A DNA stretch of 64,000 bases from an uncultured Candidatus Saccharibacteria bacterium (GTDB lineage Bacteria; Patescibacteriota; Saccharimonadia; Saccharimonadales; Saccharimonadaceae). The notes under the pieces are model-generated. The model was given only the letters and a program-made list of their open reading frames with translations, had not been told where the DNA came from and ran no database searches. Position 1 is the first letter of the stretch. Each line of letters starts with the position of its first letter. A program made the translations under genes and the position numbers. Below, in pieces: positions 1,147-17,993 of this stretch. The stretch is taken from contig CAMVEA010000002.1 in the NCBI GenBank assembly GCA_947166405.1, forward strand, positions 164 to 64,163, written 5' to 3'.

Positions 1147-2175
1147 CTATACATGTCGCTTTTTCTTCCTAGCCGTCTCCACAGCCCAATTTACCCGATA
1201 CTTCATTGGTTTCAGTATCATATCATGCGCTGGCGTATACCTCAATTCATTACATCCAAATGATCTTTTAAACTCCGAGACGCCATAAAACCTATGCTCC
1301 TTCTCATCTGGCTCCACAATCCCCCATAAGTTATATCGAATACACCCCCGATTTCTAGCCTCATTCATAGCTTGCATGTGGAGTAGTGGAGCTGCCGAAT
1401 ACTTCGTACCAAGCTCCGAAGATACGCCATAGTGATAACTTGCCTCCGCCCCATAAAAAATCATAAAATTCTGCGCCAGCACTTCTCCATCCTTACGGGC
1501 AGTATAAATTAATACTTCACCACCTTCGCGAAACGCCTCAAATTGTTTTTTGAGAAACGACTCCGAAAAAGCCACGTACTTCTGTCTCTCAGCATGCAAT
1601 TTTTCCAATCTGCAAAACTCTTCAATCGATTCATTATTAGTATCTGCCGTAATCTCGATATCATTCTTTTTAGCTTTTCGAAGTTTACGTCGAAACCCCT
1701 GTGACGCCCCAGCCAAAATGTCCTCTTCTGATTTTGTCAAATCCAGCACCCCAGCAAACTCCACCGATAAATACATCGGCGCCCGTTTCAACCCTAATTC
1801 GCTCATTAACATCATAGACTTATCCGACAATTCTAATTGAGGTCGCACCCTCACAAACACACATTCAGCCTTCAGCCCTTCATCACGAATATCATCAAAC
1901 ACTAACTTAATCAGCTCTTTATCATTCCAATCAATAATCGGACCGCCAGCAATCGCCATATATCTCCCACGCTTCGCCGTCTCGACCACACCAGCATATA
2001 CCCCGACAATCTTATCTCCACTCATTACTGCACGCCTCACAACCTTCTTTCCACGTGCTTTATGAAATTCATAAAAATCCCATGACTGCAAGAAATTCGC
2101 TTCTTGATGAGAAGTAACAAACTCATCCCAAGACGAACGATCATCTGCATCAATCAATACCACTTTACTACTCAT
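1147..2175 (-). CDS. FemAB/FemX-family tRNA-dependent peptidoglycan bridge aminoacyltransferase
   Basis: Motifs FLQSWDF, GGPIID, FVRVRP, YNLWGI and GVSEFKRSFG are typical of FemABX/MurMN GNAT-fold ligases. Confidence 0.85.
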   Translation of the reverse strand: MSSKVVLIDADDRSSWDEFVTSHQEANFLQSWDFYEFHKARGKKVVRRAVMSGDKIVGVYAGVVETAKRGRYMAIAGGPIIDWNDKELIKLVFDDIRDEGLKAECVFVRVRPQLELSDKSMMLMSELGLKRAPMYLSVEFAGVLDLTKSEEDILAGASQGFRRKLRKAKKNDIEITADTNNESIEEFCRLEKLHAERQKYVAFSESFLKKQFEAFREGGEVLIYTARKDGEVLAQNFMIFYGAEASYHYGVSSELGTKYSAAPLLHMQAMNEARNRGCIRYNLWGIVEPDEKEHRFYGVSEFKRSFGCNELRYTPAHDMILKPMKYRVNWAVETARKKKRHV

Positions 2176-3260
2176 AAATGCCTCCTTTTCTTGCGCGCCT
2201 TTTCCACAACCAAATCTTTCAGATAACCAATCTTCGAAATCACCAAATCATGCGCCGGCACATATTCAATCACTTCACCGCCAAAACCAGTTTTAAACGT
2301 TGTCACACCTGCATATCGATGCTCTGGATGTCCAGGCGGAGCAATACCCCACAGATTAAACCGCTCATAACCCTCTGCCTTCAAATCTCGCATCACCCGC
2401 CAAAGCAAAGCATACGCCCCAGGCAACTTACGATTAAGCTCTGTCGAAGCCGCTTCATAATAATCGCCTTCTCGCCCATCCTTAATAATCAAACCATAAG
2501 CCACCGGCTCTCCCTCGTCACCACCACCAGCCAAATCACCTCTGTTATTCGGCGATTCATCAGGCGCTTGCTTTAATTCATCATTATGTACCCTCGCCAC
2601 ATAAATCTCAGCATTCTCACCAAATCCTTCTCGTTCTGCCAATAACGTGTTCAAATTCGGCGGTACAAAATTCTGCCTCTTAGCCGTCTCTGCCTGCACT
2701 CTATGAAACTCTCTAAACACTTCCTCCGAATTGCACTTTTCTACTGTAATCTTTAGTTTATCTGCCCTTCGCACCTCATATCTAGTCTGTCTCCGCATCT
2801 TAGCCAATAACTCATCCTCTGAGCACGACAAATCAATCATCACAGTATGTTCAGCCGCCAAATGCATTGGCGATTCACTAAGGCCAAGTTTCGACAGTTT
2901 CTTCAAATTCTCTTCACAGGCAATCAATTGTGGCCTCACCCTCACAAACACACACTTCTCATTCCGTGCCACTTCAGCAATCTTTGCAAAAACTTCTTTT
3001 GCCAATTTCTCATTACCCCAATCAATCAAAGGCCCACAAGGAATCTCCAAATACCTCCCCCGCTTCGCGTCTCTTACAGTCATTAGCGCCCATCCCTTTC
3101 CGCCAAAATCATCATATATCACTTTGGCGCCAAGAAGCTCATTTACTTTACCATAAGCCGGCGACTGGAGAAAATTAGCCTCAGGGTGTTTTTTCACGAT
3201 TTTTTTCCAATCATCCATCGTAAATCTATCTGTTTTTTTCACGCTTGTCTCCTTACTCAT
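2172..3260 (-). CDS. Second FemAB/FemX-family aminoacyltransferase (tandem paralogue)
   Basis: NFLQSPAY, CGPLID, FVRVRPQ, FNLWGI, GVTTFKTGFGG. Start placed at 3260 (MSKET), behind a strong AAGGAGG SD embedded in the upstream gene's 3' end. Confidence 0.85.
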   Translation of the reverse strand: MSKETSVKKTDRFTMDDWKKIVKKHPEANFLQSPAYGKVNELLGAKVIYDDFGGKGWALMTVRDAKRGRYLEIPCGPLIDWGNEKLAKEVFAKIAEVARNEKCVFVRVRPQLIACEENLKKLSKLGLSESPMHLAAEHTVMIDLSCSEDELLAKMRRQTRYEVRRADKLKITVEKCNSEEVFREFHRVQAETAKRQNFVPPNLNTLLAEREGFGENAEIYVARVHNDELKQAPDESPNNRGDLAGGGDEGEPVAYGLIIKDGREGDYYEAASTELNRKLPGAYALLWRVMRDLKAEGYERFNLWGIAPPGHPEHRYAGVTTFKTGFGGEVIEYVPAHDLVISKIGYLKDLVVEKARKKRRHL

Positions 3261-4431
3261 TTTCCTCCTTATACTCACTTATGATTTTGTTTGCGCCTAT
3301 AAGGTCTTTTTTACTATAATAACAAGGCGTATTTACGATTTGTTCTGCTACTTCGACCGCCACTGGACATTTCGCTTCAGGAAAATGCACTTTTTTGTAA
3401 TATCTCTCAGGCGACACGGGTTTCTCATACCACAATCCATCGAAATAGTATCCTGCCTTACGCAATTTCGCCAACACCTCACTCCTATCTCGTACCAAAT
3501 TAAAACCCCGAATTGGCAACTCACCAGTCTTTTTTAATCCCTTAAACTGTCTAAGCGCCAGCTTAGCTTCGAATTTACTAATTCTCTGAGTCATATCCAA
3601 TCTATTATCAGCCGATCGCTCCACAAAATGAATCTTCACCAGTAACCTCATCAATGCACCGCCAAGCTTCACATAGGTCAACCCTCGACATATTGCCCCA
3701 AACAAAGGATAAAACCGCGCCCTCAAATGCTCCGACACTTTCGGAGATTCACTAGGCGCTTTAATATCTTTTTTACAGGGGTCACGCAACACCAATGCCC
3801 CACCTGACACCGTATCAATCGATTTATCCTTCCCAAACGAAAATGCCACAGCCACACCCACCGTACCAACCTCACGCCCATCTCTATAACGTACTCCAGC
3901 GCAATGCGCCAAATCTTCAATCATCATCAAATCATGTTTCTTGGCAAATTTTTCAATCTCAACAATATCCACAGGATTACCCAGAGTGTTTTGAATAATG
4001 ATACCCTTCGGCTTCTTGCCCACTGCATCAGGATAACTACCTTTGCCAGAAAAATCAGCGTCTTGGTTCTTTTTTGAAACAACAGACGAATCAGCCATAA
4101 CATCTTCAAGACTCTCAAGAGTATAATTTAAACTTTCTTTTGAAATATCAGCAAACACAGGCTTCAGCTTCGCCGCCTTGACTGCCTCATATACCGCATA
4201 ACAAGTAAAGCCATTAATAATAACTGCATCGCCAGGCTCAAAATATGCCATCAACGCCAAAGCAAGTGCCGAACGCCCATTTTTACATAGAACTGCCTGT
4301 CCGTCATATTTATTACTAAGATACGACACCAATTCATCGCAATCTTTTTGCCTACCCACTGCAAAAGTATGCCGTAAACAATCCACCCCCGAGTAACCTG
4401 CTGCCATTCCTAAATAATAATGCCTTGCCAA
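3253..4431 (-). CDS. DegT/DnrJ/EryC1/StrS-like PLP-dependent enzyme
   Basis: KNGRSAL, GFTCYAV, IEDLAH (PLP-binding Asp) and FSFGKDK (Schiff-base Lys). TTG start. Confidence 0.75.
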   Translation of the reverse strand: MARHYYLGMAAGYSGVDCLRHTFAVGRQKDCDELVSYLSNKYDGQAVLCKNGRSALALALMAYFEPGDAVIINGFTCYAVYEAVKAAKLKPVFADISKESLNYTLESLEDVMADSSVVSKKNQDADFSGKGSYPDAVGKKPKGIIIQNTLGNPVDIVEIEKFAKKHDLMMIEDLAHCAGVRYRDGREVGTVGVAVAFSFGKDKSIDTVSGGALVLRDPCKKDIKAPSESPKVSEHLRARFYPLFGAICRGLTYVKLGGALMRLLVKIHFVERSADNRLDMTQRISKFEAKLALRQFKGLKKTGELPIRGFNLVRDRSEVLAKLRKAGYYFDGLWYEKPVSPERYYKKVHFPEAKCPVAVEVAEQIVNTPCYYSKKDLIGANKIISEYKEENE

Positions 4432-4432
4432 C

Positions 4433-5122
4433 TCATTTCCCCTTATTTTGTATCTTCTTTACTAATGTAGTAATCGCTCGCGCCAACCCCTCGGGATCTG
4501 AAATATAAGGCGCGTGCGTCCAATTCGCATAAAACTTCAATTCCGCATGAGGCAATTTTTCATACATCGCTGTCGCCTGCCTCGGAGGAGTCGTGGTATC
4601 CTTTTTACCCCACATAATAAACGTCGGTGTTTCAACTTTCGCAAAATCCAGATTTTTGTCCGACTCAAGCATATTCGCCAAAGTCTTTTTCATATTCTCA
4701 GGTGCTCTCGAATAATCTGTCGACCCAGTAATCTTATGAAAAGCCTTATCGACAATCGTAATCTTCTTAAGGGGCTTTCCTATCTTTGCCATCTTTTCAA
4801 TAAAACGTTTTCTCGCCGATGGCTCATAAATCCCTGCTGCATCAAGCAGTATCAGATGCTTCAATTTTTCGGGTTTTTCAGCGCACATATTCAGCAAAAT
4901 CCGCCCACCATTCGAATGCCCCAGCGCCACCGCCCCATCTGGTATCTCCTTATCAGCCCATTTCACATAATCCTCAATCGTAAAAACCTTATCAGATTTC
5001 TCAGTCAATCCAGGAACTCTCAGCATTTTAACGCTCAAGCCATTTTTCCTGAGCAACGCAAAAGTCGTTCGCCACGGCTCTACCGTATAAGTCCACCCGT
5101 GTATTACATACAAATCCGCCAC
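4433..5122 (-). CDS. Alpha/beta-fold hydrolase
   Basis: HGW oxyanion motif, GHSNGG nucleophile elbow, WGKKD and terminal HAP. GTG start with AAGGAG SD. Confidence 0.85.
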   Translation of the reverse strand: MADLYVIHGWTYTVEPWRTTFALLRKNGLSVKMLRVPGLTEKSDKVFTIEDYVKWADKEIPDGAVALGHSNGGRILLNMCAEKPEKLKHLILLDAAGIYEPSARKRFIEKMAKIGKPLKKITIVDKAFHKITGSTDYSRAPENMKKTLANMLESDKNLDFAKVETPTFIMWGKKDTTTPPRQATAMYEKLPHAELKFYANWTHAPYISDPEGLARAITTLVKKIQNKGK

Positions 5123-5142
5123 CTATATTTCTCCTTTCATAA

Positions 5143-6411
5143 TCAATTAAGCCCCCAATTCTTACGTCTTATAACTGCCGCCTTCTCTCGTCGACATAGT
5201 TTCTCAGCATCCTTAGGATCATCAAGTAACTTCTCGATAATCCACTCCAAATACTGACTCCCTTTGAATACCAAAGTCTCATTTCCTCGAGTGCGTTTCT
5301 CAATATATTCGAGTGCTTTCCTTGGATCTGTCGTTGCCACCGCCGAAACACCCAATTTCCTAAGCTCTGGCGCTGTCCATTTTTTAGTCCTGCGCCCCAC
5401 CAGTATTACATTGTCCGGCTTCACATCTGCTATCAACTTCGCCAAACGCTTATGCTCCTCTTCTTCTAGAGCTCCTTGATCCACAATATCACCAATTACC
5501 AGCCACTTCACATCAGCGTGCATCCTCTTAACCATGTCTAGCACCGAAGTCATCGAAATCATATGCGCATTATAACTGCTATCAATAATCTCAATCCCTT
5601 TCTTCCCCCTAAAAAACGAGCATCTTCCAGGAGCGATTTCCATACCAGTAAAATCAGGATTGAACTTTAGCTTCAAATACTTCATCAAATCTCTCACCAC
5701 AAGCAAATTAAACGAAATGTCTCTCGGTTCCGGATGATTAAAATGGAAAGTCGTATCTCCATAGGTAAAATCTGTCGATTCCGGATATACGACATATTTC
5801 TTAATCAAGCCTTTTTGTATCGGTATTACTTTTGCAGTTATATCCTCGGTGGCCTCATGCATTATCTTCGAATCGGCATCAATATATACTCGTTTGGATG
5901 TGTTAGCAGGCAAGTTGGCAAACTCCGCCACAATCGCTTCACCTACGTTTTTATATCGTCCTTCTGATACTTCCTTTTCAAACTGCACTGCGTGCGACAA
6001 GCCAATCGACACCCATATCGTCACTTCAGGCTTCAGCCATTTTGCCAAAAACTCCGCCTCGTGTGGTCGCTCTCCATCTATTTCTACCACATAGAATTTC
6101 TCCTTATGCTGATAAAACATCGCCTTAAACGGCGCCATTATAATTAGCCAAAACCACTTCAGTTTTGAGCCCTTAATCCCTTTTAGCCCCAGCATATCAA
6201 AGGGAATCCCAAATGCCGAATTTGCATCATGAGAATAATGTGCCTTATCGCCCATTTCATGCTCCAACATTTTCATCATCGTCGTCTTACCAGCCGAACC
6301 AGTAACCGCTATCACGCGCGGATTCCACCGCCGAAAAGCCTTATCTGCAAAATGTCGAAAATATCTAGCAACTTTGAAGTATAATTTCTTCTTAAGCTTA
6401 CTCACACTCAT
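5143..6411 (-). CDS. MurF-like Mur ligase lacking the usual N-terminal domain
   Basis: VIAVTGSAGKTT P-loop; IIDSSYNA and LVIGDIVDQG correspond to MurF DxYNANP and VLGDMLELG. Confidence 0.8.
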   Translation of the reverse strand: MSVSKLKKKLYFKVARYFRHFADKAFRRWNPRVIAVTGSAGKTTMMKMLEHEMGDKAHYSHDANSAFGIPFDMLGLKGIKGSKLKWFWLIIMAPFKAMFYQHKEKFYVVEIDGERPHEAEFLAKWLKPEVTIWVSIGLSHAVQFEKEVSEGRYKNVGEAIVAEFANLPANTSKRVYIDADSKIMHEATEDITAKVIPIQKGLIKKYVVYPESTDFTYGDTTFHFNHPEPRDISFNLLVVRDLMKYLKLKFNPDFTGMEIAPGRCSFFRGKKGIEIIDSSYNAHMISMTSVLDMVKRMHADVKWLVIGDIVDQGALEEEEHKRLAKLIADVKPDNVILVGRRTKKWTAPELRKLGVSAVATTDPRKALEYIEKRTRGNETLVFKGSQYLEWIIEKLLDDPKDAEKLCRREKAAVIRRKNWGLN

Positions 6412-15783: not shown

Positions 15784-15894
15784 ACAATATATTATAGCAC
15801 AAGTTTATCCATTACAATTAACGAACTTGCAAAATCCTGTTACTGTTCGCTCCTAGGCAGATCATATCATCGTCCTACAAAACAACAACGCCAC

Positions 15895-15993
15895 TATCCC
15901 CCGGGCGGGTCCTGTCGTCGCCTCCTCCCCCACGTCGCTAAGGCTCCGTGGGGGACCCCCTCCGGCGACACCACCCGCCCATAAGGGGCAATA
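15895..15993. other. GC-rich long hairpin element between the FISUMP gene and the S41 protease gene
   Basis: GGGCGGGT/ACCCGCCC (15903-10/15973-80), TGTCGTCG/CGGCGACA and TCCCCCACG/CGTGGGGGA around loop TCGCTAAGGCTC. Far higher GC than its surroundings. Confidence 0.8.
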
Positions 15994-16112
15994 ATCGTAA
16001 GTCGAGTCGTCAATCTACCCTCATGGGTCTAAGACTCTTGAGGAGTAAATCTTGAGTTTCCTTAATTATGTATCCTTGGGAGCAACCCCCGACTGCATCC
16101 ATCAGCAATCGT

Positions 16113-17993
16113 CTAGGAACTTGCTAAGCACCTAATAGTCCTACCGAAGTACTTATAGTTGCTGCTAGTACCTGGGTCGACATTTGCGCTACCCAGACCC
16201 AAGTAGTAAGCGTTGTTGTTACTGTACGCGGTAGACGACCAGTAGTTGCCGTAGCTACCTCGATAGTAGACAGACCCGCTGTTGACGTAGCCGGAGTAGA
16301 GGAAGTTATTAGGATAGCTTCTAATAGCTACTGTAGCAGTTTTGTTAGCAACATTAGTTACGCTGTTGCCGTAATAGCCATAACCATTTGATGCGTTCTG
16401 GTCTGGTTCAATACTATTACCGCTACTATCTTTCATAATGGATTTACCTAGTACATAGAAATCTGCAGTAGTATTTACGGTTGTTTGTCCACCAGTAGGA
16501 AGGCGCCAACCACTTGGGCAAATTGAAGTGTTAGTAACGGAAGCATTACTGGAAGCATAGTTGTTAAGATCAGCAATAGCAGCAGCCCAAGTGTAATAGT
16601 TGCCATAGCTGTATGTATTGGCGCTTGTAGCAGGAGCAGAGGCTCTATCAGATGTGTTTTGGTTGTTATAGCGTGGGAATCTGTAGCCCGCAATAGTTGT
16701 GCCAATGTTTGTCGTGTTATCTGCTCCATCAGTGCTATATAGGCTATTGGCAGTAGTGATGTTATTCCTCCATGGTGATTCTGGATTGGCAAGACCAGCG
16801 AAATTACCATAAGTGGCATTTGTAGCGTAGCCTTGTGCTAGTGCACCAGTAGAATTATCGCTATTAGTGTTATCTAAGCGCATGTTCTCAATCATCCAGC
16901 ACTTACCGTCTGCGAGTTTAGCGATGGCGTAGGTGTTGTTGTCGCGCTGGTCAGTAAGGGCGGAGACGGAGGCGAGGTTTGCAGTGCCGTCTATTGGAGC
17001 AGACGTGAGGGAGTTACAGACACTAGCTACTTTGGTTGAGTCTTGGAGGTTACCTTGGCTCTTAACCCATACAGCATAGAGTGAGAGACCTGGATTGGCG
17101 CCAGTGTAATCAGCAGTATTTAGCGTGATGTCCTCCATTGGTCCATAGAACTTAGCCTCAGGGTTCGTGGCATAGTCATATTTATCGCTCCACCCAGCGA
17201 AACCATAGCCAATACGGCTGAAGTTGGATGGGAGGAGAGTGACGGAAGATGATACGCTTTGAGTGCTCATAGTACCTACCACATCATTAGCACTAGGACT
17301 ATAGCAGATTTTACCACTAGCACAACTCATAGGACCATCCTGTGGGAGCTTAGTAGCAGGATGAATCATTGTATACTTCACTTTACCTACATAAGTATCA
17401 GCTGCTTGCGTAGCAGAAGTATGGAACCTATATGTGGCACTAACACCAAATGAAGTAGCATCAGTAGTATTAGAGTTCCTAGCAGCGACTTTAGTATAAG
17501 TACTTGGTACTGTAGTATAGGTGCTTTGTAGGAAATCTGGTGCCGTATATCCATCAGCATTCATTAGCTTCATAGACCAGTTGGAGGTGGAATCATTAGT
17601 ACCAGTAGCAATATTGCCAAGTGTACCAATCATATTAGTATTGCCATATTCATCATTAGAGTATCCAATCGCATAAATAGCAAGCCCTCCAGGATCATTA
17701 CAGGTAGCAGTAAATGTAGTAGCACCTACATTCTCAGCTGTATCATTATTAACCATCGTAGTACTATGAGGAGTAGTATTAGCAGTACTCATTGAGCAAG
17801 CCTCAGCTACTGTGACAGAAGCATTAGCCGAAGTCGCTCCATCCGCCACCACTCTTACTGCACCAGCCACTATTCCACTTATCACTGTAATTCCTACAAG
17901 CCCTAATGACACCATACTAATCAACCCAGTATCGGCATCAATGTGTTTTACTAGTTTTCTTTGATGCTTCTTCATCTCAATTCTATCCTCCAT
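16113..17993 (-). CDS. Exported FISUMP (Fib_succ_major)/C-type-lectin-like domain protein; probable DGR target (start may be 17975)
   Basis: N-terminal hydrophobic anchor, LTDQRDNNTYAIAKLADGKCWMIENMR, GNYYTWAAA, ICPSGWRLPT, C-terminal GNYWSST...GRTIRCL. Confidence 0.85.
   Translation of the reverse strand: MEDRIEMKKHQRKLVKHIDADTGLISMVSLGLVGITVISGIVAGAVRVVADGATSANASVTVAEACSMSTANTTPHSTTMVNNDTAENVGATTFTATCNDPGGLAIYAIGYSNDEYGNTNMIGTLGNIATGTNDSTSNWSMKLMNADGYTAPDFLQSTYTTVPSTYTKVAARNSNTTDATSFGVSATYRFHTSATQAADTYVGKVKYTMIHPATKLPQDGPMSCASGKICYSPSANDVVGTMSTQSVSSSVTLLPSNFSRIGYGFAGWSDKYDYATNPEAKFYGPMEDITLNTADYTGANPGLSLYAVWVKSQGNLQDSTKVASVCNSLTSAPIDGTANLASVSALTDQRDNNTYAIAKLADGKCWMIENMRLDNTNSDNSTGALAQGYATNATYGNFAGLANPESPWRNNITTANSLYSTDGADNTTNIGTTIAGYRFPRYNNQNTSDRASAPATSANTYSYGNYYTWAAAIADLNNYASSNASVTNTSICPSGWRLPTGGQTTVNTTADFYVLGKSIMKDSSGNSIEPDQNASNGYGYYGNSVTNVANKTATVAIRSYPNNFLYSGYVNSGSVYYRGSYGNYWSSTAYSNNNAYYLGLGSANVDPGTSSNYKYFGRTIRCLASS
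16116..16310 (-). other. Candidate DGR variable region (VR)
   Basis: In the last 65 codons, 9/11 Tyr are TAC, 7/9 Asn are AAC and there are five AGC Ser. The residue pattern fits A-to-N changes in AAY codons. Confidence 0.6.

Follow-up and report, generated by a model that had tools for sequence, protein, structure and literature searches.

A probable diversity-generating retroelement variable region at the 3' end of a FISUMP-domain gene in Candidatus Saccharibacteria

Variable regions (VRs) of the Fib_succ_major/DUF1566 type are a recognised target class of diversity-generating retroelements (DGRs), and targets remote from their retroelement are known (PMC5758913). Wu et al. (2018) collected DUF1566 and DUF823 together with Fib_succ_major in target category 'd', and LdtA of Legionella pneumophila carries a VR of the CLec2 class (PMC5758913). 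Wu et al. also reported seven non-adjacent targets in Treponema and 10 DGRs whose targets are more than 100 kb away (PMC5758913). DGRs are enriched in the candidate phyla radiation (CPR; Roux et al. 2021, PMC8144416; also surveyed in ref. 23 of PMC5758913). According to these accounts they are mainly aquatic, generally serve one target each and lack domains that can be recognised (PMC5758913, PMC8144416). Large DGR surveys cannot see targets that lie away from the reverse transcriptase (RT) gene (PMC8144416). Here we describe a 64,000-nt stretch of DNA from an uncultured Candidatus Saccharibacteria bacterium of the ruminant gut (contig CAMVEA010000002.1; hereafter the window), in which the 3' end of a gene for a FISUMP-domain protein is very probably the product of a DGR and a genuine VR of the recognised target class.

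The variable region and its template class

A first-pass annotation, made from the letters of the window, had proposed that the last 65 codons of this gene are a DGR variable region; the peptide that it gave is the C-terminus of the 626-aa protein encoded at 16113–17993 on the minus strand. The template repeat (TR) of the matching class, denoted TR2, was predicted before its discovery by placing adenine wherever three VRs differ, and 18 expected differences from the window were listed. The real TR2, which is 2 nt apart from this prediction, was found on a 36.6-kb ENA contig (L087). This contig carries, in order, a target gene (P0006), a gene for a 339-aa accessory protein, a gene for a 384-aa RT with the motifs IGNLTSQ and YVDD and, on the opposite strand, TR2, which encodes FLYSGNVNSGSVNNRGSNGNYWSSTANNNNNAYNLNLNSTNVNPGTNNNNKYNGRTIRCLASS. 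The P0006 protein is 68% identical to the window protein. The L087 element recurs in four more assemblies and one Logan contig; because TR2 is thus present in five assemblies and one Logan contig, it is unlikely to be an assembly chimera. A second copy of TR2 was located at the end of a 1358-bp contig from a sheep-gut run (X25). In this copy, all 15 listed differences at predicted TR2 adenines read X>T on the plus strand; the 3 other listed differences do not.

Compared with the VR of its own neighbour P0006 over 232 nt, TR2 is changed at 27 of 70 adenines and at none of the 162 other positions (Fisher p = 1.3e-16). Over the same length, the window VR is changed at 19 of the 70 adenines and at 5 of the 162 other positions (Fisher p = 2e-7), the template in this second comparison being that of the relative L087 and not that of the window genome. 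Two stretches of template codons that had been obtained on first pass by back-mutating adenines could be compared with the real repeat: TTG AAT CTG AAT is present exactly in the TR2 of L087, and AAC AAC AAC AAT AAG TAC AAC GGT is one synonymous base off, since TR2 ends here in GGC. Between the variable codons lies the class-2 scaffold (AGC GGG TCT ... TCG TCT ACC ... CCA GGT ACT ... GGT AGG ACT ATT AGG TGC TTA GCA AGT TCC). In the window, this scaffold is identical base for base, third positions included, to that of two paralogues on another ENA contig, scaffold_467 (P0008 and P0032), whereas the DNA upstream of the VR is 88% identical between P0008 and the window.

Other templates were rejected as donors of the window VR. 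TR1, the template of scaffold_467 (locus L001), and the TRs of L082, L084 and L085 have 31–70 non-adenine mismatches to it, with 31 non-adenine differences between TR1 and the window scaffold. Among the nearest RT homologues, L089 has a diverged TR, with 22 non-adenine mismatches, and L094–L096 break before the TR.

The homology to TR2 defines the extent of the VR (Table 1). The segment given on first pass, 16116–16310, located the VR, but the true start is 4 nt inside 16310 and the end is 41 nt past 16116, through the stop codon. TR–VR homology extends 41 nt past the stop codon, up to GCAGTCGGGGGTTGCTCCCCAG; beyond this point the sequence is GATACA in all VRs and TATAAT in the TR. The tail at 16075–16115, with its GC-rich segment, is likely an end resembling the initiation of mutagenic homing (IMH) element of DGRs and would have this role.

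Table 1. Features of the target gene and its variable region (window coordinates)
Feature	Position	Strand	Basis
Target gene (FISUMP-domain protein with probable N-terminal membrane anchor)	16113..17993	-	1881-nt open reading frame (ORF), 626 aa
Hydrophobic stretch LISMVSLGLVGITVISGIVAGAV, ~residues 24–46	17856..17924	-	read off the translation
Whole VR, TR-homologous segment	16306..16075	-	homology to TR2 of L087, 232 nt
VR coding part, ...NFLYSG to ...RTIRCLASS	16116..16306	-	colinear with L087 TR2; variable codons at TR AAY; scaffold as in P0008 and P0032
Stop codon and non-coding 3' part of the VR, including GC-rich GCAGTCGGGGGTTGCTCCC	16075..16115	-	TR2–VR homology up to ...GCTCCCCAG
Degenerate remnant of the inverted repeat found at the RT-adjacent target of L087	15990..16074	-	left arm alignable to L087

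The same signature is seen across the protein family. An alignment of 25 homologues revealed a near-invariant upstream part of 250 aa and, in the last ~60 aa, a fixed scaffold (LYSGxVxxGSVxxRGSxGxYWSSTAxxxxxAYxLxLxSxxVxPGTxxxxKYxGRTIRCL) with hypervariable x positions. Among 110 homologues, 22 of the 23 columns with an entropy above 2.3 bits are Asn (AAY) in at least three of four real TRs; the one left over, column 68, belongs to the scaffold and varies from one VR class to another. The residues K, E, Q, M and W, to which adenine-only changes of AAY do not lead, account for 0–3% in those 22 columns. VR class 2 is hypervariable and recently diversified: identity between P0004 and P0009 is 99.0% in the 300 aa that precede the VR and 71% in the VR itself, and the corresponding values for P0006 and P0009 are 98.3% and 74%.

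Diversifying selection on lectin-like loops, together with gene conversion among paralogues and a local codon bias, would dispense with a retroelement altogether. FISUMP proteins do form a large paralogous family, in which N/Y/S-rich loops and the conserved ...YWSST...RC tail are family traits, and some paralogues (for example L016 and L031) have K/E/Q/M/W at variable positions. This explanation is nevertheless extremely improbable, as it leaves unexplained that the variation falls precisely on the adenines of a non-coding repeat beside an RT gene, that every variable codon of the window ends in C or T, and that the synonymous sites of the scaffold are frozen against an upstream divergence of 12%. 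Four independent lines, namely the Asn-column match, the frozen scaffold, the TR2 of L087 beside an RT and the concentration of mismatches at adenines, uphold the central first-pass proposal that a FISUMP surface protein carries a DGR variable region whose TR and RT lie elsewhere.

According to the proposed mechanism, the RT of a DGR would copy the RNA of a TR2-class template and misincorporate opposite template adenines, and the resulting cDNA would replace the VR (mutagenic retrohoming). In this way, ~22 Asn-coded positions would be rewritten on the putative ligand-binding C-terminal FISUMP module of a membrane-anchored surface protein. The window copy itself may have been such a homing target.

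Retroelement cassettes in relatives and the state of the window copy

Another relative, scaffold_467 (76 kb; loci L001 and L083), contains six FISUMP paralogues and an RT cassette. A gene for a 351-aa protein with a weak helix-turn-helix (HTH) match overlaps the start of the gene for a 376-aa RT, which has an RVT_1 match and the motifs IGNLTSQ and YVDD. TR1 lies ~100 nt past the RT stop on the opposite strand and encodes LYSGNVNGSSVNNRGSNGNYWSKSANSSNNAYNLNFNSSNVNPSNNNNKNNGFSVRCLAQ. Relative to TR1, three VRs show 22–25 adenine changes and 0–1 other change, and one of these VRs is ~36.7 kb away on the same contig. This sister cassette of the same DGR family diversifies a target ~37 kb from its TR.

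The cassettes, at 16078–18589 in L001 and 12248–14768 in L087, share a layout in the relatives: a 339–351-aa accessory protein, the RT, and a TR on the opposite strand 100–150 nt past the RT stop. The arrangement of a TR facing the RT recurs in L082, L085 and L087, and in L085 and L087 the TR is co-oriented with the adjacent target; the L004 contig ends inside the TR. An avd accessory gene beside TR and RT, as in architecture B of Wu et al., was not recognised at these positions: the protein overlapping the RT has a weak HTH_3 match in L001 and no Pfam match in L087, with no Avd match. It may be a new DGR accessory family or an HTH–Avd fusion. The predicted TR ORFs match Pfam DUF8237.

Templates of several kinds exist in the related genomes, with at least five TR classes (L001, L004, L082, L084/L089, L085, L087). 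The VRs of scaffold_467 fall into the scaffold classes YWSKSA...FSVRCLAQ, YWSSTA...GRTIRCLASS and KYPVNFVYSG...GRAIRCVAS, and only the TR of the first class occurs in the 44 kb examined. At L084 (844–1107), an ORF in the TR position (P0125) faces a truncated 353-aa gene at the position of the RT in other cassettes. In its 5' part, P0125 still has the look of a target-gene terminus (RKYPVNFVYSGGVYSGSV; G and Y occupy positions that are usually Asn), and its 3' part is all Asn. Its appearance is that of a TR that arose when a gene end was duplicated. A Bacteroides sp. metagenome-assembled genome (MAG) contains a classical TR-then-RT DGR (L081, 2594–3916), the TR of which encodes ...NNRGSNGNYWSGSLNTSNSDYAYNLNFNSDNRNPSNNNNRNNGRSVRP and shares its scaffold family with the Saccharibacteria TRs; identity between the RTs of L081 and L001 is 38%. 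These similarities hint that gut bacteria of different phyla share this type of DGR.

Of the 77 paralogue loci taken from GTDB genomes, 76 lack an RT in the flanks that were fetched (up to 10 kb), so that non-adjacent FISUMP copies are the rule. A sheep-duodenum MAG, RGIG5646 (JAFWDS01; L007–L073), has at least 20 FISUMP C-termini on 12 contigs, again with no RT in the fetched flanks; several of them have K, E, Q or M at variable sites and so look like copies in decay. In this DGR family, RT cassettes mostly assemble as contigs of 1.5–3.5 kb that break at the TR, and because of this they are easily lost from bins.

Given a DGR origin, the window VR could be an active remote target, diversified in trans by a TR2-class cassette elsewhere in the genome, probably on a short unbinned contig, so slowly or under such rare conditions that consensus assemblies do not reveal it. 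The tendency of these cassettes to go missing from bins and the use of a target ~37 kb away by the sister cassette both speak for this possibility, which we nevertheless regard as somewhat doubtful. A number of observations weigh against an active DGR target or, in part, against a DGR target at all. No second copy of the VR that could act as TR was detected in the 64 kb by word-7 blastn or an adenine-tolerant scan, and the best six-frame ORF reached only 7.5 bits with a hidden Markov model (HMM) built from 120 family RTs. TR2-type degenerate patterns were not found in JGI metagenomes or GTDB representatives, the latter set not including the window genome. No TR2-like contig was present at 86% or 80% likeness in the metagenomic runs X1 and X4 (window strain at 10–22x) or at 86% in X5 and X6; the same method found the TR2 of X25. 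The VR forms a single unitig at the depth of its flanks (22.3 vs 22.2 in X1, 19.9 vs 17.6 in X2 and 14.2 vs 9.8 in X4), and the same allele, with zero differences, was recovered in six runs (X1–X6) from five studies dating from 2019 to 2025. These depth and allele results refer to Logan contigs, that is, to consensus sequences, which show presence better than absence. Five window differences from TR2 are at non-adenine positions (16185, 16143, 16112, 16109 and 16077), where the VR reads GCA at 16185, GGT at 16143 and TAGACGATTG in the tail; three of the five (16112, 16109 and 16077) fall in the IMH-like tail. The inverted repeat that follows the VR of the RT-adjacent L087 target directly (41-nt arms, dG -30.6 kcal/mol, z -8.5) is degraded in the window, where none was detected (dG -6.2 kcal/mol, z -0.5), and the paralogues P0008 and P0032 lack one. 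At the protein level, finally, the C-type-lectin fold is structurally unconfirmed, as a model of residues 330–626 gave no PDB fold match at E < 2.

Some of these observations have counterparts that soften them. Inverted repeats of this kind are present in just 34% of DGRs (PMC5758913). The VR of P0006, which is adjacent to an RT and matches its TR perfectly, shows no difference between three assemblies that stem from separate studies; a static consensus thus need not mean an inactive VR, and the invariance of the window VR at contig level is a weak negative. The first-pass annotation had suggested looking for read-level hypervariability; on assembled contigs the outcome was negative, with one allele at flank depth in X1–X6. 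The identity of the VR in L003 was dismissed as evidence of stasis, since the whole block between window positions 10.8 and 17.2 kb is identical in this 98.9%-identical contig, which makes it uninformative.

Further searches for the genome's own template and RT were made. A tblastn search with the relative's RT and accessory protein returned no homologue in the window; avd itself was not searched for. The first-pass statement that TR, avd and RT are all missing from the 64 kb is accordingly substantiated for TR and RT. Exact IUPAC 'X or A' patterns of the VR yielded no TR in GTDB genomes and JGI metagenomes, and the exact target protein has no record in the contig collection. The predicted TR2 peptide, compared with 5.8 billion proteins, retrieved 64 short proteins, none ending in GRTIRCLASS; those inspected are Asn-rich TR-type ORFs. 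In X1, depth bookkeeping at 80% likeness accounts for every contig over 16161–16193, and no TR-like contig is among them. Joining L001 and the window into one genome was rejected, as the depth ratios of the VR unitigs differ between runs (1.45, 1.69 and 1.02). The suggestion to look for a TR beside an RT thus led to TR2 and a DGR RT in the relative L087, but to none for the window genome.

The run X6 contains, over 16117–16310, a second 197-nt unitig with the same end points, 23 differences, a depth of 3.1 and the peptide ...GSVNDRGSYGYYWSSTANYNNYAYNLYLNSAYVYPGTNNSRKYYGRTIRCLASS. Twenty of 21 listed differences are at template-adenine sites, and the exception, 16185, restores the TR2 base. We rejected this unitig as an allele of the window locus, because the flank depth equals that of the window allele alone, which identifies it as a paralogue. 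Its peptide has no match among the proteins retrieved.

These results also bear on a different history, in which the VR was written by a DGR and the cassette has since been lost, or in which recombination with a paralogue brought a finished, diversified VR into a gene that had never been a homing target. If a DGR origin is granted, we judge the case for this orphan or second-hand VR to be evenly balanced. Identical VRs occur in diverged backgrounds: the VRs of P0008 and P0012 are 100% identical with upstream parts 96% identical, and those of P0004 and P0010 are 100% identical with upstream parts 93% identical, which means that finished VRs are also exchanged between genes or strains by recombination. 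Scaffold_467 has three VR classes yet only TR1 in the 44 kb examined, and the X1 metagenome has at least five class-2 VRs, with no class-2 TR found. The degraded hairpin and the mismatches in the IMH-like tail fit this history too, as does a gene inserted between its neighbours with a composition foreign to them (see below). Against it, absence is judged here from unitig-like contigs, and the VR equals TR2 at 157 of 162 non-adenine sites, so that any loss must be recent. We therefore describe the window copy as a remote, non-adjacent target with no cassette within 64 kb, apparently quiescent at present and possibly orphaned. The first-pass description of a trans-acting target may hold for the window genome, whose own TR and RT were not found.

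As a tentative extension, ruminant-gut Saccharibacteria might run an unusually large DGR network. It would combine an Avd-less cassette, with its HTH-type accessory protein, RT and opposite-strand TR, several classes of TR, and FISUMP targets scattered by the dozen over each ~1-Mb genome; VRs would in addition be shuffled between paralogues by recombination. If so, orphan VRs would be a standing, recombining repertoire of host-attachment specificities and not dead relics.

Protein, codon usage and genomic setting

The 626-aa protein matches TIGR02145 (FISUMP) with 53.8 bits, above the curated cutoff of 41.65; with Pfam PF09603 (Fib_succ_major) it scores 19.1 bits, under the cutoff of 33.9. Residues ~24–46 are a probable signal anchor as read from the translation, with the rest of the protein probably extracellular. 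In an AlphaFold 2 (AF2) prediction, residues 2–41 form one helix at low confidence, and the full-length model, with a predicted local distance difference test score (pLDDT) of 47, is unusable. Surface exposure and a role as adhesin or receptor binder appear plausible. The AF2 model of residues 330–626, computed from 112 sequences, reached a pLDDT of 71.8 and a predicted template modelling score of 0.76. The one significant structural hit of this model was among the phage FISUMP proteins of BFVD (E = 7.5e-4), and there is no PDB sequence match for the C-terminal domain. The assignment to the C-type lectins thus follows from the literature, where Fib_succ_major/DUF1566 VRs are classed as CLec2 (PMC5758913), and not from a structural test of the present protein. 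The target has 2438 homologues; few have a source name, and all of these are Candidatus Saccharibacteria. Its relatives at the DNA level are MAGs of Saccharibacteria and 'Candidatus Nanosyncoccus', many of them named for sheep, goat, yak, cattle or buffalo gut samples.

The codon usage of the gene was compared with that of its neighbours as the fractions of codons ending in C (C3), T (T3), G (G3) or a pyrimidine (Y3). The last 65 codons have a C3 of 0.52, a T3 of 0.26 and a Y3 of 0.78, against 0.06–0.08 for C3, 0.31–0.36 for G3 and 0.40–0.46 for Y3 in six minus-strand neighbours. This third-position contrast is large and real, and confirms the dominance of NNC/NNT codons reported on first pass; the peptide given there, with its position and strand, is also correct. 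Outside this stretch the gene is likewise Y-ending (Y3 = 0.68, C3 = 0.23), and C3 of the whole gene is 0.23–0.26 versus 0.07 in the neighbours. Hence the entire target gene is compositionally odd, and what sets its last 65 codons apart is C over T and not the NNY pattern. Amino-acid content (N, Y, F, D, C and AGY-encoded Ser) dictates much of the NNY excess; for the last 65 codons, Y3 restricted to four-fold families is 0.70, compared with 0.66 upstream in the gene. Codons 316–360 have a C3 of 0.5–0.63. Within codons 240–375 (~16870–17275), the C3-rich block LQDS...KCWMIENMRLDN is almost invariant across paralogues, which suggests that the target gene is a mosaic homogenised by recombination independently of the VR.

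The order of the genes is FtsE, FtsX, coiled-coil CHAP protein, target and S41 peptidase. By position, the target is indeed embedded in a core cell-division operon, as had been stated on first pass, but it is an insertion into the CHAP–S41 cluster, because in the relative L005 the CHAP and S41 genes are adjacent, 29 nt apart with no gene between. The foreign codon usage of the target gene fits this reading. In L019, a FISUMP gene again precedes S41.

The intergenic region between the target and S41 contains a GC-rich element (15855–16000; ~58% GC vs 41% for the window) with a long imperfect hairpin (273-nt fold, z = -4.7). Its contig depth in X1 is 95–155 compared with 22 in the flanks. In a goat-gut run (X10), 15855–16080 is present exactly and the flanks are absent, and L015 has an 80% copy. 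The GC-rich region gave no Rfam match, and no Rfam family reached its gathering score in the 64 kb. The element could be a small repeated element or a structured RNA.

L003 is a second assembly of the same organism, with 0–1 differences per 400-nt bin (3 in all) over 10.8–18.0 kb; over 18–28 kb it is mostly 1–4% divergent from the window. Past LeuRS, L003 has a PDDEXK/RecT module and many small ORFs, and the window has genes for NusB, a NUDIX protein and RNase III. The comparison points to strain mosaicism and a phage-like island. Elsewhere in the window, a cell-wall cluster (1147–6411) comprises a pair of neighbouring FemAB-family genes together with genes for a DegT aminotransferase, an alpha/beta hydrolase and a Mur-ligase-like protein.

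Comparison with known systems

The target class and the enrichment of DGRs in CPR are already known, and the window locus adds one more remote VR. The parts most worth attention are the Avd-less cassette with its antisense TR and the many VR/TR classes that coexist in the relatives. The locus shows that the VR by itself can reveal a remote DGR target, which the template of a relative then serves to verify. The L087 target with its strong hairpin and the remote hairpin-less copies (window, P0008 and P0032) form a pair that bears on what remote DGR targets need in cis. Saccharibacteria are obligate epibionts with tiny genomes, and membrane-anchored lectin-like proteins with DGR-written tips are obvious candidates for host-cell recognition.

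Among the described systems, the Legionella DGR with its target LdtA resembles the window locus in having a ~60-aa C-terminal VR of the DUF1566/Fib_succ_major type on a surface-anchored protein, an AAY-rich template, and a probable IMH-like GC-rich end followed by an inverted repeat, the latter here in the RT-adjacent copy. Unlike LdtA, the anchor of the window protein is an N-terminal hydrophobic helix and not a demonstrated lipoprotein. The accessory gene of the relatives, coding for a 339–351-aa protein with at most a weak HTH and no Avd match, also departs from the Legionella DGR, as do the TR on the strand opposite to the RT and the absence of a nearby cassette from the window copy.

As in the Treponema denticola DGR, with TvpA and further non-adjacent targets, a single cassette acts on a number of paralogous targets at dispersed sites. 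The VRs of Treponema fall into a different C-type-lectin subclass. In contrast to T. denticola, several VR/TR classes coexist among the paralogues of a single contig, scaffold_467.

Bordetella phage BPP-1 (Mtd, Avd, TR, Brt) provides the parallel of an adenine-specific transfer from TR to VR at the 3' end of a receptor-binding gene, with a 3' boundary formed by a GC-rich element and a downstream inverted repeat. Unlike BPP-1, the present system is cellular and not phage-borne, with no Avd detected, an inverted TR orientation and many targets, some of them remote. The host, a member of the Saccharibacteria, places the locus with the DGRs of CPR; its DGR family differs from those described so far by its occurrence in ruminant guts, by at least six targets on one contig, by a recognisable FISUMP domain and by TR ORFs that match DUF8237.

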